The notes: generated by a model not told the origin, from the sequence alone. Counted from the stretch's first letter, positions 20,959-63,660 are shown. The stretch is DNA of 64,000 nt from a virus (IMGVR_UViG_3300045911_000143:1-64000); one strand, 5' to 3'. A program made the numbers and translations.

Positions 20959-20959
20959 A

Positions 20960-21694
20960 ATGAAAGATTTAATAGTGGTAACTGTATTATATAACTATCC
21001 AACTTTTGCTTTACCTATTTTTTACAATAGAGCTTTACAATATTTTGAACCAACAGACATACATACATTTAGATTTGAAAGTTTTAATGATGAAGAGTAT
21101 ATAAAATTCTCTAACGGAGAAAATGATTACTACTCAAAACTGTTCTTTTATAAAACAGTAAAGTTGGTGCGAGAACTACGGAATATTCAGAACGAATCTG
21201 AGCATATCTTGTTTTTGGACGCGCTAGACACTGCAATTATAAAAGATAAAAACACAATACTTGAAAGGTTTAAATCATTTGATTGCGACATTGTTTTAGG
21301 TGCTGAAAAGGGATTGTGGCCTGTTACGGAGTTTACCGACCAGTATAATAAAATTCCTTCTTCACATGAAACTAAATACTTGAACTCTGGTACTTATATT
21401 GGTAAAACATATAAGGTTATAGAGGCTTTAAATAAAATTGTTACTTTTGGTAGAGAAAAAGTTTTAGAAGACCAAGGTGCTTGGACTCGCCTTTTTTTAT
21501 CAAATGAAATGAATATAAAAATAGACTATGATAGAAAATTATTTTTTTCTACACATGAGTCAAAGGAAAAACTCATTATAGAGAATGGTGAATTTAAAGG
21601 ATTTCTAGATACTGATCCTTGTGTTATTCATGATAACGGTCCATACAATGATCAATTGACTTTTAAACTAGCTGAATACTATAAAATAGGTTAA
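20960..21694 (+). CDS. PLOD/LH3-type glycosyltransferase domain protein
   Basis: LFLDALD, IVLGAEKGLWP, YLNSGTYIG, EDQ, IH.NG motifs. Confidence 0.8.
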   Translation: MKDLIVVTVLYNYPTFALPIFYNRALQYFEPTDIHTFRFESFNDEEYIKFSNGENDYYSKLFFYKTVKLVRELRNIQNESEHILFLDALDTAIIKDKNTILERFKSFDCDIVLGAEKGLWPVTEFTDQYNKIPSSHETKYLNSGTYIGKTYKVIEALNKIVTFGREKVLEDQGAWTRLFLSNEMNIKIDYDRKLFFSTHESKEKLIIENGEFKGFLDTDPCVIHDNGPYNDQLTFKLAEYYKIG

Positions 21695-21823
21695 TTTATG
21701 AAAATATCACAAAAAATAGGTGACATATTGATTAGGTTTTCGATTGCCTGTATAATTGGCTTAATATTTGGCTTATTATTTATTTTAGGATTTTCTTTAG
21801 CATTTTTTCTGTTGAGTTAATAT

Positions 21824-23137
21824 ATGAACATTATCAAAGATTTAAACAAGACAGAAAATAAATTATTTCACATCGGGGAACAATTTATACTAAAAGTTGA
21901 AAAAGTTGAAAAACATGCAGATTGTTTTATCATAAAAACTGATCTTTATGAAAAAGATTTTTCAGATAGTCCAATATGCAATATTAATTTTAACATTCCA
22001 ATTTTAACAGTAGAATACGATAATTCAGTATATGAAAATGAGAACAATATACAAAAACAAAAAATTATTGCTTTTAATAAAGTATTAATAGAAAATAATT
22101 CATCCTTTTTATCAAAAAAGATGTTGTTTCAAATTAATGAACAATCTTTGAATATTATTCAAACTAATTTTAAGGAAATAGTTAATTATGAATGCTGATT
22201 CGGTTGTCGAAGTTAACTTAGAAGAAGAAATATTGTTTAACGTTCTAGGGTTATTTTCTAGAATTGATTGTAATGAAATTATATTTCAGTCTAAGAAGGT
22301 TAACTTTAATGAAGGCATTCTTTATCTTTGTTATGAAATGAATGGAGAACGTCAAATAAGCATAGATATTTATTCTTCCAAAAATAATATCTTTATTTTA
22401 ATAAATGAATTGGATTTTAGATTCAACAAAAATGATCCATATTTTTCATCTTATGCAATTATAGGTTCTTATAGTAAGAAAAATGAAGCATTAATCTTAA
22501 ATGCTGCTCTTCAAAGTGTAGACGTAACTAAAATATTTGAATTTATGCACCAAAATAAAAATAAAGAAACATCTCAATTCTTTGAAGATGCGGTCAGCGC
22601 ACATATTGATGACATAAATTCTATTCATATTCTTAAAAAATATAATTTAAAAATTCAAAAATGATATTAGAATCTAATTTTGAAAAGGAATTTTCAAAAC
22701 ACCTTTCTTACTGCAGGGATGAATTTTATGAAAATGTAAGGAATGATGTTAATGTAGCATTGAAGAGTGGTATAAAAATCAATAACTTAAATATCCAAAA
22801 AGCTATTATAGCTGAAGCACTGTTTAAAGATACATACGAAAAGTTTGCAATTAATGTCAAAAGATTAATTATTGAAAAGTTTAAAACACACAAAATAGAA
22901 CAGCGTTTAAATAGTATAAACTCTTTTTTCTCAGAAATGTGGAAGATAGGGTTTTCTTGGAAAAATGACATAGAAGAAATAATTATATTCTTTACATTTG
23001 ATCAAAATGATAATATTTTATATCAATGTAATAAATTAGATTATTCCTATTTTATAAAGGAAAAATATTCAACACCACTAAGCAAAATTGAGAAACCATT
23101 TCCAGATTGGTTTGTAAATTCACTTAAATTAAACTGA
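21824..23137 (+). CDS. Three hypothetical ORFs (21824-22198, 22188-22664, 22661-23137)
   Basis: Coupled + strand ORFs. Confidence 0.65.
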
Positions 23138-34684: not shown

Positions 34685-34950
34685 TGGTCATATCTCCACT
34701 TGGTGAAAGCATTATACTACAGCGGATGGTACGAGTCAAGAAAAATATTCTATTGCATTGTATTCCATTCTATGATAAAATGGGATGGTAGGACGGGGAT
34801 GGTGACAATATCCCCCTGTACCACACTTCCACTCCAATCTCCAAGATTGGAGAATCGCAGTCTGCAACACTGGAGGACAATGTTGCAGACTGTAGATTCT
34901 GAATCAGGCACTCGGGGCTGTCAACCCCTGTTCCCTTTCCTTCATTTCGA

Positions 34951-41467: not shown

Positions 41468-41708
41468 GCAAAACATTATACAGTGTTTTCTTCCGTTGTC
41501 AATAGTGGAGTTATCAGATTGGTGACTTTAAAGATGCATTCCCCCCGTCCTCCTGTCACCATTTTAGCATGGAATGTAATACAATGCAAGTCTTGACAAA
41601 CGATTTTTTTTATGGGAGACTAATCGCAAGGCATCCTCTTGTCACAAAAGATTCATAAGATATTTTTCAAAAAACGCTTGACAGTAACATTTCATTATGT
41701 TACACTAA

Positions 41709-42134
41709 TCAGTTGGCCAGTTTCAGTGCCAGCACTTCAATATTACCAAACGATTCAAAGTAATTGCTCCAAGGGTTATCCAATTTAACCTGTTTACCAT
41801 CGGATGATGTGTATACAAGGTATTGATTTTTCTGACAATTATTCAATTCAGATTCAGCCCTTCTAGCATCACATTCTGTTTCATATACGTCAAAAAATTT
41901 TATATTTGCATCCATGTTCCATCCGAGTGAGTCGTCAGTATCATAGATTGCAACAAGGGCGTAATAGAGTTGGCCCACCTTTGGTGTGAAGCCAACATCA
42001 ACAAATTCGTTGCCGTATGTCAACGATAGTTGACCAAACTTCCATTCAGTAATGGTGTTGGGATGTGAATGATCTTGCGATCCAAAACCGTCTTCATAAG
42101 ACAATTTTGAATATTGCAAATAGATTCTAGGCAT
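41709..42134 (-). CDS. Hypothetical protein (cargo of cassette 1)
   Basis: 141-aa ORF between conserved flanks. Confidence 0.75.
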   Translation of the reverse strand: MPRIYLQYSKLSYEDGFGSQDHSHPNTITEWKFGQLSLTYGNEFVDVGFTPKVGQLYYALVAIYDTDDSLGWNMDANIKFFDVYETECDARRAESELNNCQKNQYLVYTSSDGKQVKLDNPWSNYFESFGNIEVLALKLAN

Positions 42135-42256
42135 CTGGATGACCTATTAAGTCCTAACGCATACGTTAGTAGGGTCCAGTATACACTAGTTGTGGGAAAA
42201 TTAAAAGCTTACAGTTTAACAAAGTGATAGTCAGTTTTTCGACCTTCTTTGTCCTG

Positions 42257-42916
42257 TTATTCTGAGACGTAGGAAACCTTGACTTCAACACCATTAATGG
42301 TGAAAACCTTGTCCTTCTTTTGGGGAAGGTCAGCAAAGAATAGATCAACGCTCTCTGTGGTGAATCGTCTGGAAAGTACCTCTGCCAATTCTTTGCTGGT
42401 CATGATAAGATCATTTTTTCCGATGGCGCTAACTTTGACAATCATGACTTTCTCCAACCTACGAGGATATCATATCAGTCCTTTTTGTAGAATTCAAACT
42501 TTGCGCCATTTTTACAAGTGGCAATAATCAAACCTTTTCTATTGTAGGACAATTCCTTGAGTCCGCTATTATTATCACACTTTTTGGCAGCCAACTCGTA
42601 GGTTTCGGGAGCAAGGGGTGAGGACATAATCAAGGGATCGAAAACAAGTGCCTCCAGCATCAGAGTGATGGCCACGCCAAGAAGAGCAGAAATCAGATTC
42701 GTGAAAAAATCAGTCATGTTACCCTTTCCTCTTGTGAATGTCTTTACAATACTTTACCACAATGTCGGGTGGGAGTCCATCATGGTTAATCAAAGAAAGG
42801 CGAACAGTTTCGGCGTCAGGTGCATCCATGTAAACAGTGTCATGGGGGATCAAGTCGCCATTCCGATTCTTACGATATACTGTCCATGCTCGCAGCGTCA
42901 TTGGAATCTCCTTCAT
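42257..42916 (-). CDS. Three small ORFs (42257-42457, 42475-42717 membrane-anchored, 42719-42916)
   Basis: Co-oriented, tightly packed ORFs. Confidence 0.65.
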
Positions 42917-42976
42917 TTGATGAAACCATTATACCGCAATGGAAAGGAAATTGCAAGAGTGGGGATTATCATCCAT

Positions 42977-43369
42977 TTAGGGGTTATACTGTTCTCCATT
43001 TACCCACCACTCTTGTGTTCCGTCAGAACGGATTACAGCGGGTTGGCCATTGTCGCGGTGACGTACTCCGTTAACCCACCACTCTTGTGTTCCGTCAGAA
43101 CGGATTACAGCGGGTTGGCCATTGTCGCGGTGACGTTCTCCATTAACCCACCACTCTTGTGACCCATCGGGGTGAATTACAGCAGGTTGGTCTCCAAGGC
43201 GGTGCTTTACTCCGTCCTTCCACCAGCCTTGATACCCATTAGTTAGAATTAAAGCCGGTAAATCATCTCCTCGATGCCGAACACCATACTGATTTTGGTA
43301 CTCAGTCCGTATTAGCCTGCCGTCATCATCAAAAGTTTCTAGCCTATTGATCGTCATTATTATCTCCAA
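42977..43369 (-). CDS. HRD-repeat protein
   Basis: HRGDDLPA/HRDNGQPA repeats; near-exact 72-nt internal duplication. Confidence 0.88.
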   Translation of the reverse strand: MEIIMTINRLETFDDDGRLIRTEYQNQYGVRHRGDDLPALILTNGYQGWWKDGVKHRLGDQPAVIHPDGSQEWWVNGERHRDNGQPAVIRSDGTQEWWVNGVRHRDNGQPAVIRSDGTQEWWVNGEQYNP

Positions 43370-43770
43370 TTTTTGGGATATTTATAATAGTATTTCATGA
43401 TGGAAATCTAGGATTCCATCATCTCCCAAAAATGTTTTCACACTTTCAACGAGGATTGAGGGTGTCAACAATCCTCGTTGAAAACTCACCGTCAAACTGG
43501 GTTTTCTGCAAAACCACAATTTTACGATTTTGTTCCTTTGCCAAAGCCTGTGCCAGTGCAATAGCAAACTTGTAATGCTTTTCAGGGAAAACCAAACCTT
43601 CAACCAGATATTCACCGACATTCGCACTCATTATTTTTTCCCTTATGTTTTGGGTTGCGTTGGTAGTCGTTCTTGCGGTCCTTATGCTTTGCCGCTTTGT
43701 TGAATTTTCGGAAATGTTTGGCAACAGGATTCTTCACGTCCCTATTCTCTAAATTGATTGAAGCATTATA

Positions 43771-44250
43771 CTATGGATTGATTGTGCTGTCAATCATGAT
43801 TTGTTCATTTGTCGTTTGGGGTGAGGCCGGAGTGAATGAAAAAATACATGATGACTGACCGAATTGGTCAAGTTCCTCGAAACTATCAATCAATTCTGCA
43901 CTTAATTTAATTAATCCAGTGACAACGGCTACACCGTTTTCATTACGTACCACTTCTTTACGGTGGGCGTAACCAGAAATCTCATATGGTGGCAGACACC
44001 ATCCCAAAGGCCCTACGAATTCTTCTGGGCATTGATCCGTTAAAAGAACGTACCGGAAGGGATTTAAAAATTCTGTGAAGATTCCTCCGGGTGTTACCCC
44101 TTCTTTCTCTGAACAAAATCTTCTGCCTCTATAGACGTTTGTGTCATAGCACACAATGTCTGTGAAAACTTGAGGTTCAGATTCAATTACTGTGCAGATC
44201 GGATAACCCGCTGAAATAATTGATGATATTAGTAGAACATTTGTCAACAT
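43771..44250 (-). CDS. Putative secreted Cys-containing protein
   Basis: Signal-like N-terminus; LIDSFE motif; resembles 35904. Confidence 0.6.
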   Translation of the reverse strand: MLTNVLLISSIISAGYPICTVIESEPQVFTDIVCYDTNVYRGRRFCSEKEGVTPGGIFTEFLNPFRYVLLTDQCPEEFVGPLGWCLPPYEISGYAHRKEVVRNENGVAVVTGLIKLSAELIDSFEELDQFGQSSCIFSFTPASPQTTNEQIMIDSTINP

Positions 44251-44318
44251 TTTTCAATTCCAATAGGAAATCAATCCAAAAAGGATTGATTCCATGATAC
44301 TATGGAATTTGTAAAATG

Positions 44319-44603
44319 TCAATCAAGATTTGCTTCTACAAGAATCGTAATCTGTGATTCATGACCTTCATGGTCGATCAAGAACATTGACGATCCAGAC
44401 ACTTCAATTTCTTGGTTTTCCCCTTCCATGAACTTGGTACTGTATTCACAACCATCTGCACTATACCAAGTGACATACATGAATTCATTTTCATCCTTGC
44501 CGGTAAGAATGCCCAGCGATGGAAACGTCACTACACCATCCAAAACGATTCCGGCAGCGTTTTGGATAATCTTAAGAGCCTCGGGAAGTGTGATCTTTTT
44601 CAT
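44319..44603 (-). CDS. Hypothetical protein
   Basis: 94-aa ORF. Confidence 0.65.
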   Translation of the reverse strand: MKKITLPEALKIIQNAAGIVLDGVVTFPSLGILTGKDENEFMYVTWYSADGCEYSTKFMEGENQEIEVSGSSMFLIDHEGHESQITILVEANLD

Positions 44604-44991
44604 AGTATGACTTACCTGCTGTATGACTTACGTGCTGGAAAACTTGCGGGTGAACCACATCCCCGCTACCCGGTGGTATTGCCACAAATATTTCCTATCT
44701 ACATCATCGGTGGGTTGTGGCACCCGGTTTGTTTAATGATTTTTGCTATGCTTCCATTATAGCATGTTTTTCAAGATTGTCAAACTGGCTCGCCTTCATC
44801 ATCCACGGTCAGGCGTGTAATATGCCTCAAATCTTCCACACTTACATATTCATATGTATTCATGTCGAGCAATGCTTGCCAATCCCATCGAGATGGATCG
44901 TCATTCTCAGATGAAGTCTGAATCTTAAGTGTGATTACATATTGATCTACACTAAACTGACGACTCATACTATTTTCTCAGTGAGGTTGGA

Positions 44992-45067
44992 TGGTGGAAC
45001 CGGTGGGACTCGAACCCACAACCAATAGATTAAAAGTCTACTGCGCTACCAATTGCGCCACGGTTCC
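44992..45067 (-). tRNA. tRNA-Lys(TTT)
   Basis: GGAACCG/CGGTTCC-A-CCA; TAGA-CTTTTAA-TCTA; GGTTCGAGTCC. Confidence 0.95.
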
Positions 45068-45215
45068 AATATACTTACATTATACTTTGTTTTTCGACTT
45101 TGTCAACCCATCTTGCTTCAACAAACCCGAAAGGATAATTCTGGCTCGGATGATAGCATTGAATTCAGCCGTTGACAACGGCTTTCCGCTACCTTTTACA
45201 ATGATGCGAGAAAGA

Positions 45216-46192
45216 TCAGTGATTGCCTGCTGAACCTGTTCCTTGTTGATTACTTTCACGCAGATTCTCCAAGTAGGTTAGTCTTTCTCTCGCAGCATCA
45301 GCCAATCGTTGGACATGCTCAATTTGAGCCCTGAAATACTCTAGGCGGCTATTATACCATCCCACCCCTTGTCGTGTCAAGGAAATTGCCCATTCGATTT
45401 CCTCATTGGTTTGAGGATTGTTGAGATTGAGCATGTTCATGGCTTCACTTATTCTTGAGAAATTCCATTAATATCAGCGGCCAAAAAAGACCGACTACAA
45501 TGTATTCAATTATACTCCATTCTTTGTGTTCGTCAACCAAGTTAGAATTCAGCATCAGGGTTAAGGCCATAGCAACGGCAGCAGTCAGATAGAAGTCCCA
45601 GAAATTCATTCCGGCTCCACATCAATGACTACATCCTTCAACGATGCACCGGTGATGTTGGCAAACGCTTGACGCAGTACCGCAATGGAATACTCACGGT
45701 GCTCGTCATCAATAAACTCAAGATGCTGAATTTCGTAGCGTTCATTTGGGAGACCAACCGAAGGATCGTTACGGACCAGAATGTTAACGGTGTGCATGGT
45801 GTTCTCCAACCGATGAAATCATTATATTTCAACATGGGAGGCTTGTCAATAGCCTCCCATGTTTTTCAAGAACAAGACTTGATAACGTTGATAACATCCT
45901 GAACGCGGGTCGAAACTTTCGTCAAAATGTCACGCTCACGCTCACTACGCTGAATCCCACATTCATCAAAAATCTTCCGAATGCTGCGAGCAGCGTTACG
46001 GGCAGCATCGCGGGTTTTCATCCCGCCGATTCGCTTTCCACTGTTAGGGTCGGTTACGGCCCAACCAGTGAGATTTTTCACCGCACCGGACGGTACTACT
46101 TGCACGTTACGATGGATATAAAAACCAGCAACAGTTTCACCGTTGACCGGCTTGAACCCGTAATCATTGAAGTAAACCTTAACATTACGCAT
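45216..46192 (-). CDS. Small hypothetical ORFs (45216-45440, 45606-45809, 45866-46192)
   Basis: Each has an SD and/or promoter. Confidence 0.6.
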
Positions 46193-46332
46193 TTAATTTC
46201 TCCGGTGCGTTAGAATGGGAGCATTGTAATATGCTCCCATCCTTCAGTCAAGTGTTAGGTGGCTGTTAAACTTCCAGTATCGTAAGGACAGGGAAAATTA
46301 TAAACCCTGAACTCAGGCAATACCGGAAACCG

Positions 46333-46950
46333 TCAAACTCGCGGAATCACGCCCGCCTGCCGTGCGTTGCACAGATAAACGTGGGCACTCGACTTCTTAA
46401 TACCAGCGGCTTCCAGCGCAGAGATAACCGTCTTGGTATCATACTTGTCGAGGCTTCGCATGATCTTAACGGCGCGGTCATATGCGGTTTCGGCCAGTTT
46501 GGGACGACCACGGCCACGCTTGGCTTGGATCACTTCGGGGACGGCCACGATAGGTGCAGCATCTACAGCGGGCGTTGGGGCCTCCACCGTGGTTTCCGGG
46601 GCATCATCGACCGTCACCGTCACTTCCGGCTCAGGCGCGACTTCCACGACCACAGGGGCGGAATAGACAACCGGCACGAGGTCAGCCGGGACTTCCTTCA
46701 CGACGGCGGCAGAAAGAGCCTTAACCCGGCTCGAAACATATGCCTTAACCCTGTTTAGGTCATTCTCACCCTTGAGGACGGCATTGCAGATATACTTGGC
46801 GATCAGATTTGGGTTGTCGCCACCATGAATGTCAAACAGGGACGTAAACAGGGACGCATCTTCACTCGGCATGGCATCCACGAAAGCCGTGGCATCCACG
46901 ACCGAGGTCAGGGGGATATCAAACTTTTCCAGATACGATGTCAGGTTCAT
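46333..46950 (-). CDS. AT-hook-containing protein with Val/Pro/Ala-rich linker
   Basis: C-terminal VIQAKRGRGRPKLAETAYDRAV...GIKKSSA.VY shared with 37967. Confidence 0.8.
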   Translation of the reverse strand: MNLTSYLEKFDIPLTSVVDATAFVDAMPSEDASLFTSLFDIHGGDNPNLIAKYICNAVLKGENDLNRVKAYVSSRVKALSAAVVKEVPADLVPVVYSAPVVVEVAPEPEVTVTVDDAPETTVEAPTPAVDAAPIVAVPEVIQAKRGRGRPKLAETAYDRAVKIMRSLDKYDTKTVISALEAAGIKKSSAHVYLCNARQAGVIPRV

Positions 46951-47174
46951 TTGCTTTCCTTTGTTAGTGCCGGGACCATCCCCGACCATGTGAAGCATTA
47001 TACACCGTTTCAGTTGAATTGCAATATCCCGATGTGTTGTATTTTTACCACAACTCTTGTTGTATTTTTACCACATCGCTTGACAATCTTTACATTACAT
47101 GTTAAAATAGGTTGGTGGTTGAGATGATAACAAATAACCCCAAGCCCATTGTGGCGGGCTTGGGGCGGAAGCCC

Positions 47175-47939
47175 TTAGAAATCAAGGGCTTCGAGCAGCA
47201 ACGTGGCTTGAGGAGAGGCAGCAATATCATCCGGGGTGATATTCTCCCGATTGATTGTAATACTTTCAAAGTTATCAGCCTTGAGGCTGAAAGTCTTGAT
47301 CCCCACACTACGCTTGTTTAAGCAGCGTTCAATACAATTCTTCATGCGGACACTCGCACCAGAATTGACCACCTTCCGCTCACCCTCTACAACTGTCGTC
47401 GATGAAAGTTCCAGATAAAAGAGCATGATGGTTTCCGCTACCGGCAAACCATTGAATAGAACAGGCTCCATGATGCCATTTTCCTTTCGGCAGTCAAGGT
47501 TGACCTTAACACCATCAGCCACCGTGACATAACAACGATCATGCCCTTTCCGGTATCCATCGCTACGGTCGCCGTCATTGGTCTTAATCAGGGACTCCAA
47601 TTCCTGAGCCTTACGACCAGCGAACAGGGTCTTGAGAGTAGTATGGTCCATCACGGACAAAACCGGATCATTCTTGACGTACTCTGCCACATCGTCGAAC
47701 GCGATGGCTTCCAGTGCCTTGATCTTGCGATCATACAAATTCCGAATGGAAAACCGGGTGATGAAATTGATATTCTTGGACGGGGGCTTAGTGTATCCAG
47801 TGGAAGGCTTGTAACCGTGAATGGTTCCAATGCCGCCCTTCTGAATGGTAATGAGACGATCCAGCGTTTCGGCCTGAGCCGGGGTGCAAAGGAAAGGGCG
47901 GCTACCCTTGGTATATGTGACCAGCGATTCAGTATTCAT
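47175..47939 (-). CDS. Hypothetical phage protein
   Basis: 254 aa, GAGGA SD. Confidence 0.8.
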   Translation of the reverse strand: MNTESLVTYTKGSRPFLCTPAQAETLDRLITIQKGGIGTIHGYKPSTGYTKPPSKNINFITRFSIRNLYDRKIKALEAIAFDDVAEYVKNDPVLSVMDHTTLKTLFAGRKAQELESLIKTNDGDRSDGYRKGHDRCYVTVADGVKVNLDCRKENGIMEPVLFNGLPVAETIMLFYLELSSTTVVEGERKVVNSGASVRMKNCIERCLNKRSVGIKTFSLKADNFESITINRENITPDDIAASPQATLLLEALDF

Positions 47940-47987
47940 AGCAGTGTTATCCTCTCTGCGAGCGTGAGAACAGTATAGCAGGATTTT

Positions 47988-48497
47988 TCAATCTGTCAAT
48001 GTACGACGAAAAACATCTTCAATATATGCTCGCATAGTGGGGATTTGTGCTCGGTTGAATTCAGAATTCCAATTATCTTCTGTTTCCACAATAGCCTCAA
48101 GCGCCTCTAGCGAAAGTTCACCGTCAAGCAGATAGTAGGCATATTCATAATTATACCCATCTACACGATCAACGGGACCATCAACGGCGTCCCAAAAGAA
48201 TCCGTCAAACTCCAATCGAATATGATTGAAGTAAACATTATTAGCGTTCCATAGGTCAGCGTCATTTGGGACGCAACCCTCTTGTGCAATCAAGGTTTTT
48301 TCTACTTCTGAAACATCAACAGGGTCATCGTGGGACCACACACGAATTTTATAATTAAACACCCCATATCGTTCCAGAATCTTTGCTAATTCAAGAGCAA
48401 AGATGCCGCAACCACCTCGATTAATACGGTGAACGCAGTCGCAGATATGACCACAAATCTTATCCAAAGCGTTGCAGATGGATTCGTTAGTGTGCAT
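47988..48497 (-). CDS. Putative Cys-His-Asp (papain/transglutaminase-like) protein
   Basis: INRGGCGIFALEL...NHIRL...FWDA. Confidence 0.55.
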   Translation of the reverse strand: MHTNESICNALDKICGHICDCVHRINRGGCGIFALELAKILERYGVFNYKIRVWSHDDPVDVSEVEKTLIAQEGCVPNDADLWNANNVYFNHIRLEFDGFFWDAVDGPVDRVDGYNYEYAYYLLDGELSLEALEAIVETEDNWNSEFNRAQIPTMRAYIEDVFRRTLTD

Positions 48498-49209
48498 GAC
48501 AAGTAGTATAACACAATTAAATAACTTGTCAATCATTTCAAGTGTTGTATTTTTACCACAACAAATCTATGTATTACTATCCTCCCTCCACCATCCTATT
48601 TTAGCACAAGCATCCTGAACAGAAGCTGAATATTCAGGAAATTATTTGCTTGACACATACAAATTATTATTGTATACTAATCCTGCCGGGGCGTTCATGT
48701 TTGTAAAAGGATGAGCACCTGTGGAACCGCCTTCGCATTTATAATAATAAATTACACAGATCGATTTTACATAGAAAGATTGGTAGACTCGCCATCTGTG
48801 GGTTATGATGGTGGACACATAAAAAACATTTACAGATAGATAAAGATTGGCTTCTAGTTGTAAATTCACAAGAATATTATTTTGAAGAGTGTAGCCGATT
48901 TGTTATCTTATAATCCTACACCGTCTTTCACTCTTTCTAATAATCAATCTTAGTACCTATCAATTGTATGATTGTAATAATTCTAAATGACAGGTTTCAA
49001 CAATTCATTTAATGATGCAAAGACAGTGGTCTCTGATACGTAAATTAGATTGATTTCAGTGAAATTATTAGTTTTCTGATATAAGTATTATCTTTTAAAG
49101 ATAGAATTTGAAATATACCAGCCACATTTAAATAACATGTGGTGGGTAATACCCACTAAATCCTAACGCATACGTTAGTAGTGTCCAGTATACTTTAGCT
49201 GTGGGTTTA

Positions 49210-49802
49210 TCAACTACGAGCAAAGATATACCACATGATGTACGCAAAACTTGCACTAGCAATAATAATCAAATTTAAGACTTTGGAAAACTCGACATTT
49301 TCTGTTTTACCATTAATGATTAGAATAACCTTGCAAATGTCATAAATTTTTGCATTAATAAATGCAACTGTATTGACGAAAAACAGATAACTAGCAAAAA
49401 CGAACAGACCAACCAAGATTGGATCGAGCATTTTTATCTCCAGTGTCGTGATAAAATGTTGATGTTCTGACTATATTCCTGATTGGAATAGTATTGCCAG
49501 TGTTCTGCATTGTTGTTATGGATCGCTGCGAGGAAAAGAGCGACTGCCGGTTCAGACTTGGCGGCCACACTAAAGTGTCCAACCGGGTTAATATCATACT
49601 GATATACAGTCACAGGGCCTTCTTCAGTTTCCAGAACCCAGTGCTCTCCAACCTTACCATCTGCCGATGGTTTTGCGTTCGGCGGCCCTAGCATGTTCAG
49701 CAGGGTGTTATTATTGGTCATCAGCACTCCAAGACGGAATGAACCTTCCGTTTTTTGTGTAGGAGTGCTTGGGACGACACAATAATTAGAAAGGATTTTC
49801 AT
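49210..49802 (-). CDS. Membrane protein (49210-49431) and hypothetical protein (49434-49802)
   Basis: Co-oriented ORFs; LGPPN...DGKV..HW motif. Confidence 0.65.
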
Positions 49803-50193
49803 GGCTATTCTAGATATAAGTGTTATTCAACATCTTCATACTTGGAATTCCAAATTGCAGCAATTGCTGATACAAGGATGATAAGTCCTACAGCAATCGC
49901 ACCGGTCACAAGCATCTGCATCATTTATGAATTCTCTTGGTAATTTGTCTACAATTTGTCAGCATTATATCATTAATGGGGAGGGGTGTCAAGACAATCT
50001 AGTGACTTTCAAAGTCACCGGGTCAACATCGAGAATGACAGGCTTATGGTGAGATTCCTTAATCTCGAATACCGTTGCAGTAGACGTAGGATCGCGCTGA
50101 ATCGAAAATGCTTCCAGAACAGCATCTTCCGGTGTTTCAGCATCAATGTTTATAGCCCAAGTGACAGTAAATTCTCTCATTTTATTCCTACCT

Positions 50194-50523
50194 TTAAGGA
50201 AGTGTGATAGTTGCAATAAACTCACGACCCATTTGTTGATAAATTTCCCAAGCCCGAACGATTTCTTGCACGGTGGGGAAACGATTTTCTTTCTTCTCGT
50301 TGCACTTTCTACATGCTAGCACAATGTTTCCGGTCTTGCCATATCCTTTAGAACGCGGGAATAGATGGTCTACAGTGTAGCCTTTCTTACGAGAATCATT
50401 GTAAGTAATATACTCCATAAAACTATCGCAATAAAAACAGCGGCAGTTCTGATGGGAGTAAAGCAACGAGACAGGAACATGACGAGGCCGTAGAGCCTTA
50501 ATTTCCACGATTGCCGGTTGCAT
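50194..50523 (-). CDS. HNH endonuclease
   Basis: CFYC, TVDHLFPRSKG, NIVLACRKCNEKK. Confidence 0.9.
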   Translation of the reverse strand: MQPAIVEIKALRPRHVPVSLLYSHQNCRCFYCDSFMEYITYNDSRKKGYTVDHLFPRSKGYGKTGNIVLACRKCNEKKENRFPTVQEIVRAWEIYQQMGREFIATITLP

Positions 50524-50537
50524 GACACGGAGATTGG

Positions 50538-51103
50538 TTATTTGTAAAGTTGATTGTGGATTAGCGAACTACACTCAGGACTACAGTATACTTGACTTCC
50601 ATCTTCTTTCCAATACCTTGAGATTGGATAATTTACACCATCATTGATGCCTAGCCCGGTCGGTGCAGACTCAACTAGAACAAGTGTACCACAAACATGA
50701 CACTTATAGTGAAATGTTCTCGGTACAGGCTTTACCAACCATTTATAGTTCAGGTTCACCATCTTCATCAAGATTAGGTGTAGTTTTAGACGGGATATAA
50801 ACCCACTTAATTATTAGTGGAATTTCGTACCCTAGTTCTTCGGCTCGTTCAAGCATTTTATTTCTCGCAATAAAAATCACCAATATTTAGATCATTCCAT
50901 ATTTCTTTTTCAACATGATAATATTTTTCACGTATTCTAACCTGATACGTACTATCACCGTCAAATTCACCGTGATACTTTTTTTGTATCATACCACACG
51001 GAAGATCAGATTGGAATGCTTCGTTTATTAAAGCCCCTAAAATAAGACAGATAGCCATAACTCCTATGGCTATCTGTCCACTCGTTTTGCTATTTTTATC
51101 CAT
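50538..51103 (-). CDS. Zn-finger small protein (50538-50771) and membrane-anchored protein (50858-51103)
   Basis: CHVC...YCSPEC; N-terminal TM segment. Confidence 0.6.
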
Positions 51104-52091
51104 TCAATGCAGCATCCTGAACCGCTTTGATGAAGTATGCACGGGCTTTGGTGGAAACGTAACTATTAACCTGCTTCCATTCATAACCATTGGCTGCAAT
51201 CTCTTCCGTACATTCTTTCAAAATGTCCTTATGAATCCATTTAATATACTCACCAGTGAATTTGGAATTCACTTCCATCCCATTTTCCTTCAGGTAAGAG
51301 ATGCCCTGCTCCAGCCTCCATTCAGGCAAGATGTTATCAACCAGATTATTGATACCCTCAACAATGGTTGGGTCAACGGTAATTTTCTTACCTTCCTTAT
51401 TCGGTTTCTTATGCTTCAGCCCCTTTGTCTTGAACCAAAGTGAGGTATCTTGGGCCAGTGTATTGATGACTGGCATCCAGACAATTCCCTCACCAGTGCC
51501 AACCACACCATGCAACTTACCCCAAGGACATTCCGTTTCGACCATATTGGTCAGTTTTTCAATGTCATTGAGAACATCGGTGTTGTCAGCATTTTCCGAA
51601 AAATCAAGCGTAATACCAAAAATTGGAGCCTCCGCCACCCAACGGAACGGCGAATTATCATACGCTCCCGGAAAGAAAAACTTTCCGTCAAAATGAATCA
51701 TAAAACAAACGAAATGCTTTTCCAATTCAGAAACAGCAACTCCCTTCTGGATTCCCTTACCAATCCATTCACCATAGAATCGCACGACACCGTTGTTAAA
51801 ATACTTCTTAGCAAATTCAAGAATGGCCTGACTATTGGCAGCAACCCAAAAGGCAAACCCGTAATTATCAGATTCGACGGTAAGCGGACGCTCACGAGAG
51901 AACGCTTCAACTTCACCCGTTTCAGTATTCACGGCAATAGAGCCGTTGGTACCATGCAACTTGACCGAGCCAATATAATCTACAGTCCTGATAAACTTCT
52001 CAGGCTGATTGTTACCAAGGCACCAGTTATTGTGCTTGTGAACATGCTTGAAAACGTGATGAATAGAATCAATCGAAGGGAACTTCAACAT
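51096..52091 (-). CDS. RNA ligase, Rnl2-like
   Basis: KFPSI, motif I KLHGTN, FSRE, YGEWIGKGIQKG, GEGIV, FKTK. Confidence 0.88.
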   Translation of the reverse strand: MLKFPSIDSIHHVFKHVHKHNNWCLGNNQPEKFIRTVDYIGSVKLHGTNGSIAVNTETGEVEAFSRERPLTVESDNYGFAFWVAANSQAILEFAKKYFNNGVVRFYGEWIGKGIQKGVAVSELEKHFVCFMIHFDGKFFFPGAYDNSPFRWVAEAPIFGITLDFSENADNTDVLNDIEKLTNMVETECPWGKLHGVVGTGEGIVWMPVINTLAQDTSLWFKTKGLKHKKPNKEGKKITVDPTIVEGINNLVDNILPEWRLEQGISYLKENGMEVNSKFTGEYIKWIHKDILKECTEEIAANGYEWKQVNSYVSTKARAYFIKAVQDAALNG

Positions 52092-52118
52092 GTTAATTCT
52101 CCAACGCGAGAGGAAGAA

Positions 52119-52810
52119 TTATACAGCAATGGTTATTGGACTGTCAACTCGTTTGAGGACAATTCCAGTGTGTGGGCTTCCATTCTTCTTGACCCAGATG
52201 TTTCTGTCTATCTTCCAGACACCCCATTTGCTATGAATCATAGCATAATAAATTCCTTGACCACCGTAATCAGCAAATTCAATGCTACCCGAGTACCAAT
52301 AATCTCCGAATTGGTCTTTGAAAATTGTACCACTCTTTGGATACGTAACCTTCGTTAGAAAACGTCTAATCAAAGTTTCCATTAAAATCTTGAACTTTCT
52401 GCATTGCAATGAAGTTATCATACTTGCTAATCTTTTCCATTTCAATATCGACTAGCTTGCTAATATGATTAGCAGCTTCTGTTAGCCCACGTTCCTCAAA
52501 CTCAAAGGCTTTGTTCATCAGACTGTTTACTTTCCGAAACTTCCGAGAGGAAAGGCAGTGTAGCGTTTCCAGCATGTTGATAACATTGCTCATTTGATTC
52601 AGCCCTCGAAAATGGTTTAAAATCAACAACTTGAATATCTTCTGCGTATGGTTTAAAGACCAATTTGTTGTTTTTTTGCAACAAAGTGCCTATGTCACCA
52701 TCTTTCCAGAATTTTAAAACTGATTCATCAGCTTTTGCTATAGTACCATCTTCAAGATAGATGTAGGTATACTTTCTGTGAAGGGGTGTAAATCGTAACG
52801 CAGCCTTCAT
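52119..52810 (-). CDS. Three small hypothetical ORFs (52119-52382, 52366-52593, 52502-52810)
   Basis: Co-oriented overlapping ORFs. Confidence 0.55.
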
Positions 52811-52831
52811 GGAAGGTAATTAACTTCCGTA

Positions 52832-53068
52832 TTAATCACCATCATAGGTATAATCAAGGACAGCCTTAGCGGCTTCCATCCGAGCATCGACCTTGCCACG
52901 AGTGTATGCGGCTTCAAGTGCATTTTTAATAAGCGATACATGAAGTTCGTGGAAATCCAGAGAATCTGAATTCTGAGTCTTAAGGGTACGAATGCCTAGA
53001 ATTCGATTTGCGATGCCTTCGTAAATATCATTAATTTGGTTCATGTTCAATTTATCCTTTATTTTCAA
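52832..53068 (-). CDS. DUF6900-like small protein
   Basis: LGIRTLKTQNSDSLDFHELHV..IKNALEAAY. Confidence 0.75.
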   Translation of the reverse strand: MKIKDKLNMNQINDIYEGIANRILGIRTLKTQNSDSLDFHELHVSLIKNALEAAYTRGKVDARMEAAKAVLDYTYDGD

Positions 53069-53203
53069 TATGTTACATCAAGTTTTTGACAAATTAGATT
53101 ATTCCTCCAACAAGGAGGAATAAAATAACAATTATGCCTCCCTCTGTCAATAGAGGTCAAATTTGTAAATGTCGAGACTTATTTATTTACTATATAAGGT
53201 TAA

Positions 53204-53299
53204 TGTTCACTGGTGGGACTCGAACCCACATCGGAAGACTTTGTTCTCCCATGACATAACCTAAACTAAGGTTATCGCTTACCTTTTGCTACAGTGAAC
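53204..53299 (-). tRNA. Atypical tRNA-like element (8-bp acceptor, aberrant anticodon arm, long V arm)
   Basis: GTTCACTG/CAGTGAAC, canonical GTGGG-TTCGAGT-CCCAC T arm, hairpins ATAACCT/AGGTTAT and GGGAGA/TCTTCC. Confidence 0.6.
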
Positions 53300-53311
53300 A
53301 CGTTTAAAATT

Positions 53312-53387
53312 TGGTAGGGCCACCCGGACTCGAACCGAGACTCAAGCGATTATGAGTCGCTGGCTTTAACCATTAAGCTATAGCCCT
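53312..53387 (-). tRNA. tRNA with CAT anticodon (Ile2-like)
   Basis: AGGGCTA/TGGCCCT-A-CCA; GCGACTCATAATCGC arm as in enterobacterial tRNA-Ile2. Confidence 0.9.
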
Positions 53388-53526
53388 AATATTCAGATTA
53401 CACGCAAAACCCTTATTTCATTCTTACAACATCAAGCGAAAGTCATTATACCATGTTTCTTCCGCTTGTAAATTTTTATTTATATATCCTGTATTTCAGG
53501 TAGCAGTCTGTGTCGTTATCCGTACA

Positions 53527-53646
53527 TCATAGCATAGTTTGTGGAGCAGAAATGATGGCAGGATTATCATCATCCCGATGAAATACACCATTTTTATAGT
53601 ACTCAATAGAACTATCAAGGTGTTTGAATAAATAAATGTCATTCAT
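53527..53646 (-). pseudogene. Truncated HRD-repeat gene
   Basis: MNDIYLF...YYKNGVFHRDDDNPAII...TML* after one repeat; AAGGA SD. Confidence 0.55.
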
Positions 53647-53697
53647 ATTTATTCCTTAATCTCAGCCAAGATTTTATCAATCAAATCCATTTTTTCC

Positions 53698-54351
53698 TCA
53701 GTCCATTTCAGCCTTTGTCTTTCCATAAATGATAACATACAGACGCTCAATTGCTTTGTCAATTTCAAGAGATGCGTCATAAATGTCTTTAGGCCAGTGG
53801 CTACGATATTCTTCTTTTTTCTTTTCGTTACTAACGCCATATTCCATATTCAAACTGACCAGCCAGTAACGCAAGAAATCATAAAGTAGGATGGCCCATT
53901 CTTTGTTAATATTGTCAGGAAAGTTAAGACCCCTAGCATATTTTGTGCTAATACCCTTAGTGACATAAGGGCCGGAAGGTGCAGAACAAACGGAGCCTGC
54001 ATTAAAATCATAAGTATACTTAGAATTAACAATTTCCTCAATATTCTCAATAACGAAATTCCATCTAATTTGTTCCCATTTAGATTGAAGTCTACGACTT
54101 GTATTGAAGGCTTCCATACTAGGATTTTCAGGGAATTCATTTTTGAATTCCATAGGTTCGTGAATTTCGCTTTCAAACTCACTGTGATGCTTCAGTTTAC
54201 CATCCTCTTCATCCCATTTCATCCCATTGCCACTAACGGCAAACCAATGAAACAAAACATAGTTCGGAGATGGGAAAATTTCGTGACAAGTTAGCAGAGC
54301 ATGACGCATCATGCTCTTAATGTCACCGTTGGTAAACGTAATGTTAGTCAC
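53698..54351 (-). CDS. Hypothetical protein
   Basis: 217 aa, GGAG SD. Confidence 0.75.
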   Translation of the reverse strand: MTNITFTNGDIKSMMRHALLTCHEIFPSPNYVLFHWFAVSGNGMKWDEEDGKLKHHSEFESEIHEPMEFKNEFPENPSMEAFNTSRRLQSKWEQIRWNFVIENIEEIVNSKYTYDFNAGSVCSAPSGPYVTKGISTKYARGLNFPDNINKEWAILLYDFLRYWLVSLNMEYGVSNEKKKEEYRSHWPKDIYDASLEIDKAIERLYVIIYGKTKAEMD

Positions 54352-54353
54352 TG

Positions 54354-55481
54354 TTATTCTCCAAATTCTACGGGATCATCCTTGATCCCGTAGTCTTTAT
54401 AATGCTTAATCATGAATTCCTTAAGGTTGACTTCCTTACCAACATAAAGATTCATTGCCAAACCAAAAATTCCATCCTTCGACAATTCCTGTTGACCAAG
54501 GATAGCATAAGACTTGCGATCAAGTCCACGATTAGCATCATAGAATTCATACAAAGTCTTATGGAGATGATTATAAATCTTTGCAACCTTCTCCTCCATT
54601 TCATTAATTTGCGAGATTGCAACAACATCACCATGCAACATGCCGCGAAGATCATCGGCACCTTCATTCACGCAAGCCTCAAACAAGCGACGTGGCGAGG
54701 AAATGCTATCCTTAGTTTTATGCAGCGAGCAATACTTATCAGTCTTGACCTTCACCCACTTACCGTCACGGAACTTAAAGATAAAACCTTCAATATTATC
54801 CTGTGATTCGTATACGGACTTTACGAAGGTTTCAACATCAGCCGGGATAGGCAGTGAATCAACCCAATACTTTTGCAAGATGGTAGTCTGCTCCAGCGGG
54901 ATGTATTCGCCAGTTGCATTGTCCCGCACGTTCAGAACAACAAGCGAAGGCTTTTCATACCCAATAACAATTCGATTGTCTGGTGAAACATATTCCATAT
55001 TGACAGTCCAATTGTTTTGGACACAATTGATAATTCCAAAAAGCAAGTCTTCAAATTCCTCAGTGTGCAAAAGCGACTCCGCAGCCTTAGCCTGCTCAGA
55101 ATGAAAAGAACCCTTGGTCTTAAGGCAAAAACTACCACCATCGCCTAGAATCACTGTAGAAACCAGCGAGCCATCCATCTTATTTTGAATTTCGACTACG
55201 TTGGAAAAATCCAACGACATGACATACGGATTTTCACCGTTGTTGAAAAACTTCTGCATAGGAAGCGATGCAAGTTCTACCGGCTCGCCGTCAACCATAC
55301 GGAAGGTGTGTCCACGGCACTCCATAGCGTTAGGGAGCATGAAGTCAGTATAGGATGCCAGTCGGTACAGGAAGATGCGGAACGAGGCTCCTAGAGCTTC
55401 CTGATCGACGTAATAAAACGCCTCCGAGGATGCACAGAGAGTCATCAAATCATTATAGAGGGTGCGCTGGAAGTCGTTCAT
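54354..55481 (-). CDS. rnlA: T4 Rnl1-like RNA ligase 1
   Basis: YRLASY, ECRG, PMQKFFN, motif I KMDGSL, KTKGS, EYVSPDNRIV, IEGF, KVK...Y..LH. Confidence 0.93.
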   Translation of the reverse strand: MNDFQRTLYNDLMTLCASSEAFYYVDQEALGASFRIFLYRLASYTDFMLPNAMECRGHTFRMVDGEPVELASLPMQKFFNNGENPYVMSLDFSNVVEIQNKMDGSLVSTVILGDGGSFCLKTKGSFHSEQAKAAESLLHTEEFEDLLFGIINCVQNNWTVNMEYVSPDNRIVIGYEKPSLVVLNVRDNATGEYIPLEQTTILQKYWVDSLPIPADVETFVKSVYESQDNIEGFIFKFRDGKWVKVKTDKYCSLHKTKDSISSPRRLFEACVNEGADDLRGMLHGDVVAISQINEMEEKVAKIYNHLHKTLYEFYDANRGLDRKSYAILGQQELSKDGIFGLAMNLYVGKEVNLKEFMIKHYKDYGIKDDPVEFGE

Positions 55482-55757
55482 GGGATTCTCTATGATGTTG
55501 GAACATCATAACAGTAGTTTCAGGAAGATGCAAGGCAATCCACATTTATACCCTCGGGGGGGGGCGTTTTAATCGCGTCTTTATAGTACTAAAGATGGTT
55601 TTCCTTGTAAAGCCCCCTCAAAAATGAAAGATGCCGTTCTCCCTCCACCATCCTATTTTAGCACAAGCAACCTGAATGGAAGCTGAATATTCAGGAAATT
55701 ATTTGCTTGACACGGGCTAATTATTAATGTATACTATTCCTGCGGGGTTATGTTTTG

Positions 55758-56207
55758 TCAAAAATCTGATCCTGCTGTGGCCATGCTGTTTTTGTAACTT
55801 TGCACGACACCGACGTTTTCAAAATGGTAAGAACGCTTGATTGAAAGGTGGATTTCCTGAGAGGAATTCAGTGCGGTAACATACAAGTCACGATATTCTT
55901 GTTTAGGTGTATTGAAAGCGTCCTCAAACGCGGTAGGATGATAAAAGATAGTCAAATCACCATAATCCAAATTCAATTGAATATTGGAAATTGATTCCAT
56001 GCTGATAGTAATGGGGGGAATAGCTTCATCGTTCTGATCCTTACCGAGTAAGATTAGACTGTTGGTTTTATCTACGGCAAAGTGGAAATCAGACCACAAA
56101 CCCTGAATATTATTCCAAGTCACACAGTATATGCCGTTGGTGTCTGAAATCTTTTTCAGGGTTTCAGCAATATGCTGCTTTTCAGTAATTTTAACAATAT
56201 CGGTCAT
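55758..56207 (-). CDS. Hypothetical protein (cargo of cassette 3)
   Basis: 149 aa; SD supplied by the conserved repeat. Confidence 0.75.
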   Translation of the reverse strand: MTDIVKITEKQHIAETLKKISDTNGIYCVTWNNIQGLWSDFHFAVDKTNSLILLGKDQNDEAIPPITISMESISNIQLNLDYGDLTIFYHPTAFEDAFNTPKQEYRDLYVTALNSSQEIHLSIKRSYHFENVGVVQSYKNSMATAGSDF

Positions 56208-56259
56208 ATTAAGTCCTAACGCATACGTTAGAAGGGTCTAGTATACTCTAGTTGTGGAG

Positions 56260-60897: not shown

Positions 60898-61049
60898 GGA
60901 CAGTCCCCATTTTGATTGAGAGAAATGTAAGCCTGAGATTAAGACTTAACGCAGCAACCTTTCCGGTCATTATCCCACACTTGCAGGTGTAGGTTCTACC
61001 GTTATCCACGCACTCGTGTGCGTATTTGCCATACCTGCTCATTTATTTA

Positions 61050-61782
61050 AAGCGCGCGAGCTTATTGCGCTTGTCACCAATGACACTACTCATGGTTCTG
61101 TCTACCGCTTGCCTTGCGGGCAATAAGAGGACGCTAATCCCCTACGTGCGACTTTCCCACAACAATCTATCACCTTGCGAGTTCTAGACTGGCTTGATTC
61201 AGTTGCCTGTCAAGCATTAAGGTACTTTTCATCATTGGCCGGTGACAACTTTGCTATGTACTTATATACCATTCAAAGTTTTAATACCGCCTGAACTTGC
61301 GTGCCACCGTTGCTTCATAACCTTTTGGGCTACAAAATACAACACAAGTTCGTATCCGTTCATTGGCATTACTAGGATTGTCATTTTCGATCAAGCTGTT
61401 AACTTGACCTATTGACTGGATTACGCACTTGCCTGCCAAGACTCGCACTAAAATCCTACACCTTAGATAGTAAACTATGAAAGTTGCATCTACTAGAGGT
61501 TTGCTGCCTCAACAATTTCAGTTTTACCCTCAATTGCTTTCGTAGCATTCAGTCGTTTACCCCCTCACCCAACTCGGTAAGTGGATACCCCCTCTTTTGG
61601 AGAGGAATACATCCGGTGCTTTCTTGAATAGACCATATTGCTATGGCGAACGGGTTGGCGACCCATCCTTTATGCATATCACTATGCACTATCCTTGCAC
61701 TTAAAGAGTTGCCCCTTTAAGTGTGTCAAGCCAGACCTTTCGGTTTCGTTCCTTTATGGTGGAACTCATCAGTGGCTACCGT
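61050..61782 (-). ncRNA. Large structured ncRNA (GOLLD/ROOL-like)
   Basis: About 730 nt with no credible ORF, many GNRA-capped hairpins on the - strand, TTGACA(61816)-N16-TAAGAT promoter, adjacent to tRNAs. Confidence 0.7.
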
Positions 61783-63207: not shown

Positions 63208-63660
63208 TCAAATTTTTACAGTTTTATACTTTACTCCATTTTTATACCATGCTTTGCCACCATTAGGCCAAACTACGGCAGGTTCATCACCATCTCGGTG
63301 CAATACTCCGTATCTGTACCAACATTGTTTGCCATTAATGCATATAGACGCAACCTGATTATTCTCTCTATGCCGCAACCCAAATTTGTACCAGTGCATT
63401 TCTCCATTTGGAAATATAATGGAGGGTTCATCACTGTCACGATGGAGAACACCGTTATAGTAGTAGTACAGCCTGCCGTCAAAGTATTCTAATGCAGGTA
63501 AGTCATTGTTTCTATGGAACAATCCATCCTTAAACCAAGCCTTACTACCATTACTCCAGACTATTGCAGGTTCATCATCGTCACGATGAATTACGCCAAA
63601 TTCGTTACGGTATTCTACTCTTGAAAATTTACCGTCTTTGATTTCAACTTTCGTTAGCAT
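63208..63660 (-). CDS. HRD-repeat protein
   Basis: Five HRxxDxPA repeats. Confidence 0.88.
   Translation of the reverse strand: MLTKVEIKDGKFSRVEYRNEFGVIHRDDDEPAIVWSNGSKAWFKDGLFHRNNDLPALEYFDGRLYYYYNGVLHRDSDEPSIIFPNGEMHWYKFGLRHRENNQVASICINGKQCWYRYGVLHRDGDEPAVVWPNGGKAWYKNGVKYKTVKI

Follow-up and report, generated by a model that had tools for sequence, protein, structure and literature searches.

Recurring promoter, slot and end-motif units in a XacN1-like jumbo phage and its relatives

Why would a phage genome set the same pair of flanks around unrelated DNA at three places spaced about 7 kb apart? The question is raised by positions 41541-56257 of IMGVR_UViG_3300045911_000143:1-64000 (hereafter the window), a stretch of 64,000 nucleotides that opens a virus record of 78,354 bp (CheckV completeness of about 21%) from a hot-spring or microbial-mat metagenome. 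A preliminary description of this DNA reported three cassettes with conserved flanks and unrelated cargo, and took them either for gene cassettes under convergent sense/antisense control or for periodic landmarks. The three cassettes were recovered in the present analysis, with a right flank of 51 nt in exactly three copies, and the cassette is a genuine unit found across a family of jumbo phages, in which a promoter block, a slot and a polar end motif follow one another. We lean towards reading the three slots as regulatory single-gene slots of XacN1-like jumbo phages, similar to the promoter-early stem-loop (PeSL) cassettes of T4-type phages and located in an early, tRNA-rich host-takeover region of small open reading frames (ORFs).

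Flanks, promoters and the clade-wide end motif

A repeat finder delimited the right flank as three copies (42145-42195, 49154-49204, and 56207-56257) that are 86-94% identical. The 16-nt palindrome of this flank occurs three times per window strand, against 0.27 expected, and no fourth copy is present in the whole 78,354-bp record. A weight matrix derived from 13 distinct clade instances gave the three window sites scores of 30.6-37.5 and the next-best position -0.2, so there is no degenerate copy. A scan of viral contigs for the exact right flank gave no match. All three copies agree with an oriented motif, (A)ATAAGTCC-TAACGC-NN-GCGTTA, their second half-site being ACGTTA. In right flank 1, the + strand reads ATTAAGTCC-TAACGC-AT-ACGTTA (42146-42168) followed by AGTATAC (42178-42184), and the - strand reads CCCACAAC...TATACT, the hairpin, and AGGA. 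The motif lies at 49156-49177 in right flank 2 and at 56208-56230 in right flank 3, with the AGTATACT box at 49187-49194 and 56240-56247, respectively. This box is its own reverse complement, and the strand it serves is therefore not told by the sequence. The flank offers a -10-like TATACT only, 8 nt before the motif, and its - strand has no -35 box. In right flank 3, which contains the Shine-Dalgarno (SD) sequence AGGA and the ATG of the slot 3 gene, the motif hairpin (-7.4 kcal/mol) covers the AGGA. Two other identities were considered and rejected: a T4 late promoter for the flank, which has just three copies (TATAAATA is reported elsewhere in the genome), and an intrinsic terminator for the motif, where a U tract is absent after the hairpin. 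An Rfam 15 scan of 41.5-56.3 kb returned only tRNAs at E values up to 1, with no match for the flanks or for the content of slot 2.

The core of the motif, TAACG-N4-CGTTA, is present seven times in XacN1 (four unique sites and three terminal-repeat copies), six times in Xoo-sp13 and five times in RAS14, while the reversed control pattern was counted zero, two, and zero times in the same genomes. A one-sided TAAGTCC extension at nearly all sites gives the motif its orientation, and the oriented form was found in only 4 of 50,697 phage records, those of XacN1, Xoo-sp13, CM1, and RAS14. An exact 18-mer scan of metagenome contigs identified 11 loci, five of which (L005, L006, L011, L012, and L015) encode homologs of XacN1-clade proteins, four of these five with the extension. 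The half-sites are invariant and the central dinucleotide is free (AA, TC, AT, AG, GT, CA, and others), with no covariation. The motif occurs in both orientations relative to flanking genes and often overlaps or just follows a stop codon, or precedes a start codon by 3-37 nt, as seen at many co-directional sites. In L011 (2089-2349) and L005, three copies crowd into 260 bp; a distance of 98 bp separates two of them, which belong to near-identical tandem units. Each copy lies 8 nt before a TGTTATAAT promoter, and one of these promoters serves a homolog of the Xoo-sp13 tRNA-His guanylyltransferase gene. The fourth XacN1 site (66100) is located in a divergent intergenic region of 735 bp, 225 bp past the point where the terminal repeat of 65,875 bp stops. 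A search of a paper library for the letters of the motif retrieved unrelated primers only, with no mention of the motif, and the XacN1 genome paper leaves promoters unmentioned and uses the word "motif" only once (PMC5852040).

The left flanks of cassettes 2 and 3 (48582-48690 and 55639-55747, 7057 bp apart) are 91% identical over 109 nt and hold a CCTGAAT...ATTCAGG palindrome and a + strand TTGACA-N17-TATACT promoter, in agreement with the preliminary description, which had noted about 100 bp of near-identity including the palindrome. It had also rightly called left flank 1 diverged; this flank matches a general promoter family instead (34753-34798 against 41589-41543, 85%). The left block of cassette 1 (41541-41566, - strand) is a promoter of this family (family A), with TGC-TAAAAT, a TTGCAT -35 box and a G-rich leader, and is predicted to fire leftward; the inward promoter is a sigma70-like TTGACA-N17-TACACT at 41678-41706 on the + strand, with 445 nt between its -10 end and the motif, and a second, weaker inward promoter begins at 41593. 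In cassette 2, an extended -10 TGC-TAAAAT with a G-rich leader (48575-48603, - strand), predicted to fire leftward to an ORF at 47988-48536, stands back-to-back with the inward promoter (48650-48678, + strand; TTGACA-N17-TATACT, 11/12 matches), which is 482 nt from the motif, and the palindrome CCTGAAT-N-ATTCAGG (48614-48638; hairpin of about -11 kcal/mol) lies between the two. Cassette 3 is built in the same way, with a TGC-TAAAAT left block and G-rich leader (55639-55660, - strand) predicted to fire leftward to the RNA ligase 1 gene, the palindrome CCTGAAT-N-ATTCAGG at 55671-55695, and an inward TTGACA-N17-TATACT promoter (55707-55735, + strand) 478 nt from the motif. In both cassettes the TAAAAT promoter directly follows the CCTGAAT...ATTCAGG hairpin (-7 to -11 kcal/mol), which is not rich in GC and is absent from the list of a terminator scan.

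The - strand TAAAAT/G-rich element that had been described as a mark of the cassettes is indeed present at them, but it is not specific to them, as the region from 34.7 to 55.7 kb carries about 10 copies, distributed over both strands. These family-A promoters (window 34753-55660) consist of TTGCAT or TTGACA-N17-TAAAAT and then a G-rich start, e.g., GGGATGGTGGACGGGG, and the family with its G-rich start is kept in XacN1 (record 3245-22491) and Xoo-sp13. Several lead directly into a terminator hairpin (38388 on the + strand, 39732 on the - strand), and such promoter-hairpin units look like small RNAs of about 60 nt. The region is extremely rich in promoters: across 18.5 kb, the - strand carries nine perfect 12/12 sigma70 matches and the + strand about five strong ones, three of which are the inward promoters of the cassettes.

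Promoter and motif keep a characteristic distance. At 16 of the 22 scorable motif sites, a sigma70-like promoter is aimed at the motif with its -10 end 420-600 nt upstream, an arrangement that 11.6% of positions picked at random from this DNA, read in the same orientation, also show (binomial P of 4e-11, a value subject to the caveats that some sites are mutually orthologous and that a promoter one gene-length upstream is likelier at gene ends than at random positions). By our own estimate, a background of 25% would still give a P near 1e-6. The three window distances given above all fit this rule. In XacN1 (22458-22973), a G-rich TAAAAT promoter is directed outward, a back-to-back sigma70 promoter is directed into a slot of about 0.45 kb, and the motif stands at its end; the arrangement is the same at 18497-19029 and 21225-21766 in Xoo-sp13. 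Promoter block, slot of about 0.45-0.6 kb, and motif were found in XacN1, Xoo-sp13, and RAS14 and likewise in metagenome contigs related to them; the cargo is different there and may be on either strand. A GNAT acetyltransferase is encoded sense to the inward promoter in XacN1 (ORF064) and Xoo-sp13 (gene 51), and a protein of 82-85 residues is encoded antisense to it, with its own promoter beside the motif, in the same two phages (ORF052 and gene 46); both pairs are orthologous and located at orthologous slots. Across three genomes there are at least five unrelated kinds of slot content. The view of the units as gene cassettes under convergent sense/antisense control is thus upheld with regard to architecture, which recurs in relatives with cargo on either strand, and not with regard to exchange, as orthologous cargo is kept.

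Slot contents and possible modes of action

The three slots of the window differ in what they hold. Slot 1 contains an ORF (41709-42134, - strand) for an ORFan of 141 residues with no relatives and no family, for which an Atlas structure look-up gave nothing usable. Slot 2 (48691-49153) is non-coding, with 31% GC, 9-18 stops per frame and no Rfam match; it stays closed in every frame under any single stop reassignment, its fold z-scores are -2.9 on the + strand and -2.2 on the - strand, and it has no detectable remnant of cargo 1, cargo 3, or the GNAT gene of XacN1 and Xoo-sp13. Slot 3 contains an ORF (55758-56207, - strand) for a protein of 149 residues with four metagenomic homologs at 59-66% identity; scans of viral contigs and metagenome contigs for its relatives gave no match. 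The model of this protein (pLDDT 72) has a mostly beta fold, with no PDB match below E 1e-3; a PH/PTB-like barrel was considered and, the rows for it being weak, was not used. Cargo 1 and cargo 3 have no similarity to each other, neither resembles cargo 2, and the three interiors share only chance-level words, which confirms the earlier observation of unrelated cargo with a stop-riddled middle copy. Likeness between copies ends where the flanks meet the slot, in keeping with flanks that recombine or are under selection.

For slots of the PeSL-like kind that we favour, the following mode of action can be proposed. The left block would start the next - strand transcription unit through its leftward TAAAAT promoter with the G-rich leader, and would also fire into the slot through the near-consensus sigma70 promoter. 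In cassettes 2 and 3, the CCTGAAT...ATTCAGG hairpin may attenuate incoming transcripts, in a terminator/promoter arrangement like that of PeSLs. The slot of about 0.45 kb would be freely replaceable content, in this case two unrelated orphan genes antisense to the inward promoter and one non-coding filler. In the window phage the inward promoter would make antisense RNA against the - strand cargo, which itself could be read from the -10-like TATACT or via read-through from upstream genes. The end element would combine the clade motif, the AGTATACT box, and the ribosome-binding site and start codon of the cargo, and a conserved phage protein would bind the motif, marking or insulating the far end of the slot. 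The flanks would serve as homology arms, the contents being replaced by ordinary phage recombination, as proposed for PeSLs in T4-type phages; the observed pattern would fit homologous recombination in the flanks as the means of replacement.

At the level of sequence, this proposal builds on firm ground with respect to the repeats, the matches to promoter consensus, the conservation of the motif, and the distance of 0.42-0.6 kb and orientation of the motif to the inward promoter. Several points weigh against the remainder. Promoter use, antisense transcription, and the strand served by the AGTATACT box are all inferred; the missing - strand -35 box of the right flank leaves room for the cargo genes to be co-transcribed with upstream genes, as they may be; and no reader protein for the motif has been identified. 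XacN1 and Xoo-sp13 are too diverged to show replacement of slot contents. The spacing of the units in the window (P of about 0.003) and in XacN1 (3860 and 3859 bp) is more regular than chance predicts. Finally, the motif keeps one polarity towards the inward promoter wherever it was scored, and this strictness, like the stop codon within the motif, would equally fit a 3′-end or processing signal in RNA.

As to how the motif is read, our preference, tentative and a little short of even confidence, is for a DNA-bound protein, with the motif acting as a DNA operator or roadblock, because the half-sites are invariant around a free centre, the motif occurs in both gene orientations, and the promoter-motif distance is near the length at which DNA loops most easily. 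The clade-specific protein of 254 residues encoded at 47175-47939 was considered as a possible reader because it has the same distribution as the motif; Atlas gave nothing usable for it.

It is possible, if doubtful, that the motif acts instead as RNA. It would then form a 5-bp hairpin with a CNNG loop after the AU-rich AAUAAGUCC, serving as the 3′ end or as a processing or stability site of an inward transcript of about 0.5 kb, or, in the window phage, as a 5′-terminal hairpin or translational operator of the cargo mRNA. The constant polarity and the internal stop codon speak for this, as do the position of the motif just behind stop codons and shortly before start codons at co-directional sites, the overlap of the hairpin with the SD of cargo 3, and the commonest variant, a G(CUUG)C tetraloop on one strand. 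Stable intercistronic hairpins of T4, reportedly described by Tuerk et al. in 1988, would be a precedent. However, the stem is without covariation even though the phages share just 42-49% RnlA identity, and the variable part is the loop, which an RNA-binding protein would usually read. The hairpin is also weak and has no U tract behind it, and the flanking genes run the opposite way at several sites, including all three of the window.

A rather improbable further alternative is that an undescribed clade-specific protein reads the 22-nt motif and that motif and promoter block, 0.42-0.6 kb apart, constitute a size-constrained polar device, either a DNA loop or a dedicated cassette-exchange site, with the sites of some genomes placed at measured distances (3860 and 3859 bp in XacN1, 7009 and 7053 bp here).

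Exchange and spacing of the units

If the flanks were dedicated cassette-exchange sites like those of integrons or dif modules, and the slots capture sites, one could account for two distinct conserved ends in fixed order around unrelated cargo of similar size, for the variety of contents in three genomes, and for an imperfect-palindrome core with a variable centre, as in core-type recombination sites. We nevertheless consider this improbable. Searches for tyrosine and serine recombinases (PF00589, PF00239) found none in the contig or in the complete XacN1, Xoo-sp13, and RAS14 genomes, while the controls of these searches were positive in 14 and 12 of 14 genomes. The slots are kilobases apart and form no array, the orthologous slots of XacN1 and Xoo-sp13 keep orthologous cargo, and the left end is plainly a promoter block. 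No excision joint or circle was seen at the cassettes in Logan contigs; these contigs break at 31-mers common to left flanks 2 and 3, and the listed contig "joints" trace to paralogous repeats (36768/41427 and 38091/46463). The cargo swapping anticipated in the preliminary description was not encountered among relatives either, since CM1 and RAS14, the only close pair, are identical at the two motif regions compared (holding three of the five sites) and XacN1 and Xoo-sp13 carry orthologous cargo.

The spacing was the basis of the other early suggestion, that the units are periodic landmarks. The gaps between right flanks are 7009 and 7053 bp, a difference of 0.6%, with all copies in the same orientation, and three random points would be this even with a P of about 0.002-0.003. 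In XacN1 (AP018399.1), same-strand sites at 19100, 22960, and 26819 are separated by 3860 and 3859 bp, and the two blocks between them have no DNA or tblastx similarity to each other. These regularities would suit ejection pauses, looping anchors, or origins with a spacing of about 7.03 kb under selection, a reading to which we give very little credence. The period of about 7.05 kb does not continue: the weight matrix finds no further copy at 35.1, 63.2, 70.3, or 77.3 kb, and with no score above -0.2 at any other place in the 78-kb record it ends both ways, even as degenerate copies. In Xoo-sp13, gaps of 2737 and 4618 bp separate the orthologs of the XacN1 trio, the gaps in RAS14 are an irregular 17396, 14096, 36597, and 87 bp, and the two regular spacings, 3.86 and 7.03 kb, differ, neither being a multiple of the other. 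That the slots lie about 7 kb apart is probably an accident, a by-product of their positions. The 3860 and 3859 bp of XacN1 are an unexplained oddity from which, with four genomes, no rule can be drawn, and measured placement keeps a small probability.

Least credible of all is the idea that a 7-kb block was long ago triplicated in tandem and left this pattern behind. The equal spacing and direct orientation of both flanks would speak for it, but blastn, blastp, and tblastx detect no collinear homology between the blocks, as the preliminary description had already observed of the DNA between cassettes (inter-block matches are confined to scattered MORN-like repeats and tRNAs, at non-corresponding offsets), and the flank trees conflict, right flanks 1 and 3 being closest on one side and left flanks 2 and 3 on the other.

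Genomic setting and known systems

The window phage is an uncultured jumbo phage of the XacN1-like kind, which has tRNAs and RNA ligases of T4 type. Its closest kin at the protein level are the cultured jumbo phages Xoo-sp13, RAS14/CM1, and XacN1, with RnlA identity of 46-49% in Xoo-sp13 and RAS14/CM1 and 39-48% identity for the 254-residue protein in all four of Xoo-sp13, RAS14, CM1, and XacN1; a scan of viral contigs for RnlA relatives gave no match. The credible genes at 41-60 kb are all on the - strand, and tRNA genes are present in this region. The neighbours of the cassettes include an ArdA-type antirestriction protein (PF03230; 40862-41284, - strand; 31.3 bits, cut-off 25) encoded immediately downstream of cassette 1, an HNH endonuclease (50194-50523, - strand), an RNA ligase 2-like protein (phrog_548; 51096-52091, - strand), and the T4 RnlA-type RNA ligase 1 (54354-55481, - strand), which is the predicted target of the leftward promoter of cassette 3. 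In relatives, the homologous genes sit in a small-ORF terminal region, which in XacN1 is a tRNA-rich direct terminal repeat of 65,875 bp (PMC5852040). A motif site is found no more than about 1 kb from the HNH endonuclease homologs of XacN1 (ORF062), Xoo-sp13, and RAS14, and from the RNA ligase 2 homologs of Xoo-sp13 and RAS14, so that the linkage is conserved. The HNH endonuclease is no more than a lead towards a reader of the motif.

Other features of the contig were noted alongside. G+C content jumps from about 0.30 to about 0.48 at window position ~34000, where repeat-rich proteins and + strand genes are followed by the early-type region; the jump could mark the edge of a module, the junction of a terminal repeat, or a join made in assembly. 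A family of proteins with a 72-bp (24-residue) repeat has at least five paralogs (12850-13545, 42977-43369, 63208-63660, and contig 75542-78273), four of them in tandem at the contig end. A full-length match to the Rfam model of GOLLD RNA (60930-61352, - strand; 189.5 bits against a gathering score of 150, E 4e-52) lies in a tRNA-rich stretch, and a weak HH9-like hammerhead match (61720-61780; 26.6 bits) is under its gathering score. Adjoining a tRNA-Met, a tRNA-like gene of 96 nt was called by ARAGORN at 53204-53299 (- strand); the anticodon assigned to it is odd in having two bases. The G run at 55551-55564 (C on the - strand) in the leader of RNA ligase 1 has a two-base length difference in the contigs of one run, either a homopolymer variant or an assembly error. 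Past the window, rIIB- and rIIA-like genes at contig 68572-71775 have 41% and 31% identity to those of Xoo-sp13; in Xoo-sp13 the rII genes are directly before RNA ligase 1, while here about 13 kb, including cassette 3, lie between.

The units bear on a little-described part of phage biology. XacN1-group jumbo phages devote tens of kb (a 66-kb terminal repeat in XacN1) to small early genes whose regulation is undescribed, and no description of the promoter/slot/motif unit of the XacN1 clade was found in the papers searched. The motif is identical letter for letter in phages of Xanthomonas and Stenotrophomonas and in an uncultured hot-spring phage, and it keeps its distance and polarity relative to a promoter, which points to a specific regulator or boundary factor. 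It could also be used as a simple marker for spots that hold exchangeable accessory genes, in a neighbourhood that includes an anti-restriction gene and an HNH endonuclease.

Several known systems resemble the units in part. An insertion sequence or miniature inverted-repeat transposable element is not indicated, as the flanks share only GTATAC (22 copies, not rare) and no end duplication was found; transposase families were not searched. A lambda-type nut site is made of the linear element boxA and the boxB hairpin, of which the loop is the part that is read. Like the motif, it places a conserved single-stranded stretch before a 5-bp hairpin, in one orientation, downstream of an early promoter; unlike it, nut sites have no sequence likeness to the motif, whose loop is variable and which is present in 3-6 copies per genome, and we know of no N-like protein here. 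Phage morons (promoter, gene, terminator) are likewise self-contained single-gene units among other genes, and the present units also have an anti-restriction gene among their neighbours, but morons lack a conserved, clade-wide end signal, and the end motif is no intrinsic terminator, having no U tract. With integron attC sites and dif modules, the units share unrelated single-gene cargo between conserved sites and an imperfect-palindrome core with AAC...GTT; they differ in lacking an integrase or Xer-type recombinase, an array, and any structure of attC length, in having a promoter block at one end, and in carrying cargo on either strand. The MotA/AsiA-dependent middle promoters of T4 combine a MotA box at -30 with a -10 element. 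The + strand motif, which ends 8-10 nt before a -10-like hexamer in the window, L011, and L006, would be in the -35 position, as an activator box replacing the -35 element. Its sequence is, however, unrelated to the MotA box, and most motif sites of the relatives are without a -10 at that distance. The MotA and AsiA families (PF09158, PF09010) had no match in XacN1, Xoo-sp13, RAS14, or the contig, in a search whose control genomes were also blank.

The closest likeness is to PeSLs, the regulatory cassettes of T4-type phages (Arbiol et al., 2010, PMC2839356; Comeau et al., 2014, PMC4122927). Both are repeated intergenic modules of about 50-110 nt in the hyperplastic early region of a T4-related phage, beside orphan genes, and PeSLs similarly combine strong sigma70-type promoters with a stem-loop, an SD, and a start codon. 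In the present units the sigma70-like promoter within the repeat is TTGACA-N17-TATACT (11/12), together with the extended -10 TGC-TAAAAT, and a stem-loop is directly upstream of a promoter in left blocks 2 and 3; in both systems the repeated elements offer homology for modular shuffling. In contrast, a PeSL flanks its ORF twice with the same element, while here two different ends come in fixed order: the left and right flanks of one cassette are alike only in GTATAC, and it is the copies about 7 kb apart that are direct repeats. PeSL stems vary, whereas the end motif is invariant in sequence across distant genera; the right-flank hairpin lies downstream of a -10-like box, and the inward promoter stands at a constrained distance of 0.42-0.6 kb. 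PeSLs are known for mini-circles and for indels that set close relatives apart, and none were seen here in the contigs or between CM1 and RAS14 at the motif regions compared. The slot thus differs from PeSLs, its nearest kin, by its two unlike ends, its invariant polar end motif, and the rule of distance that ties this motif to the promoter.

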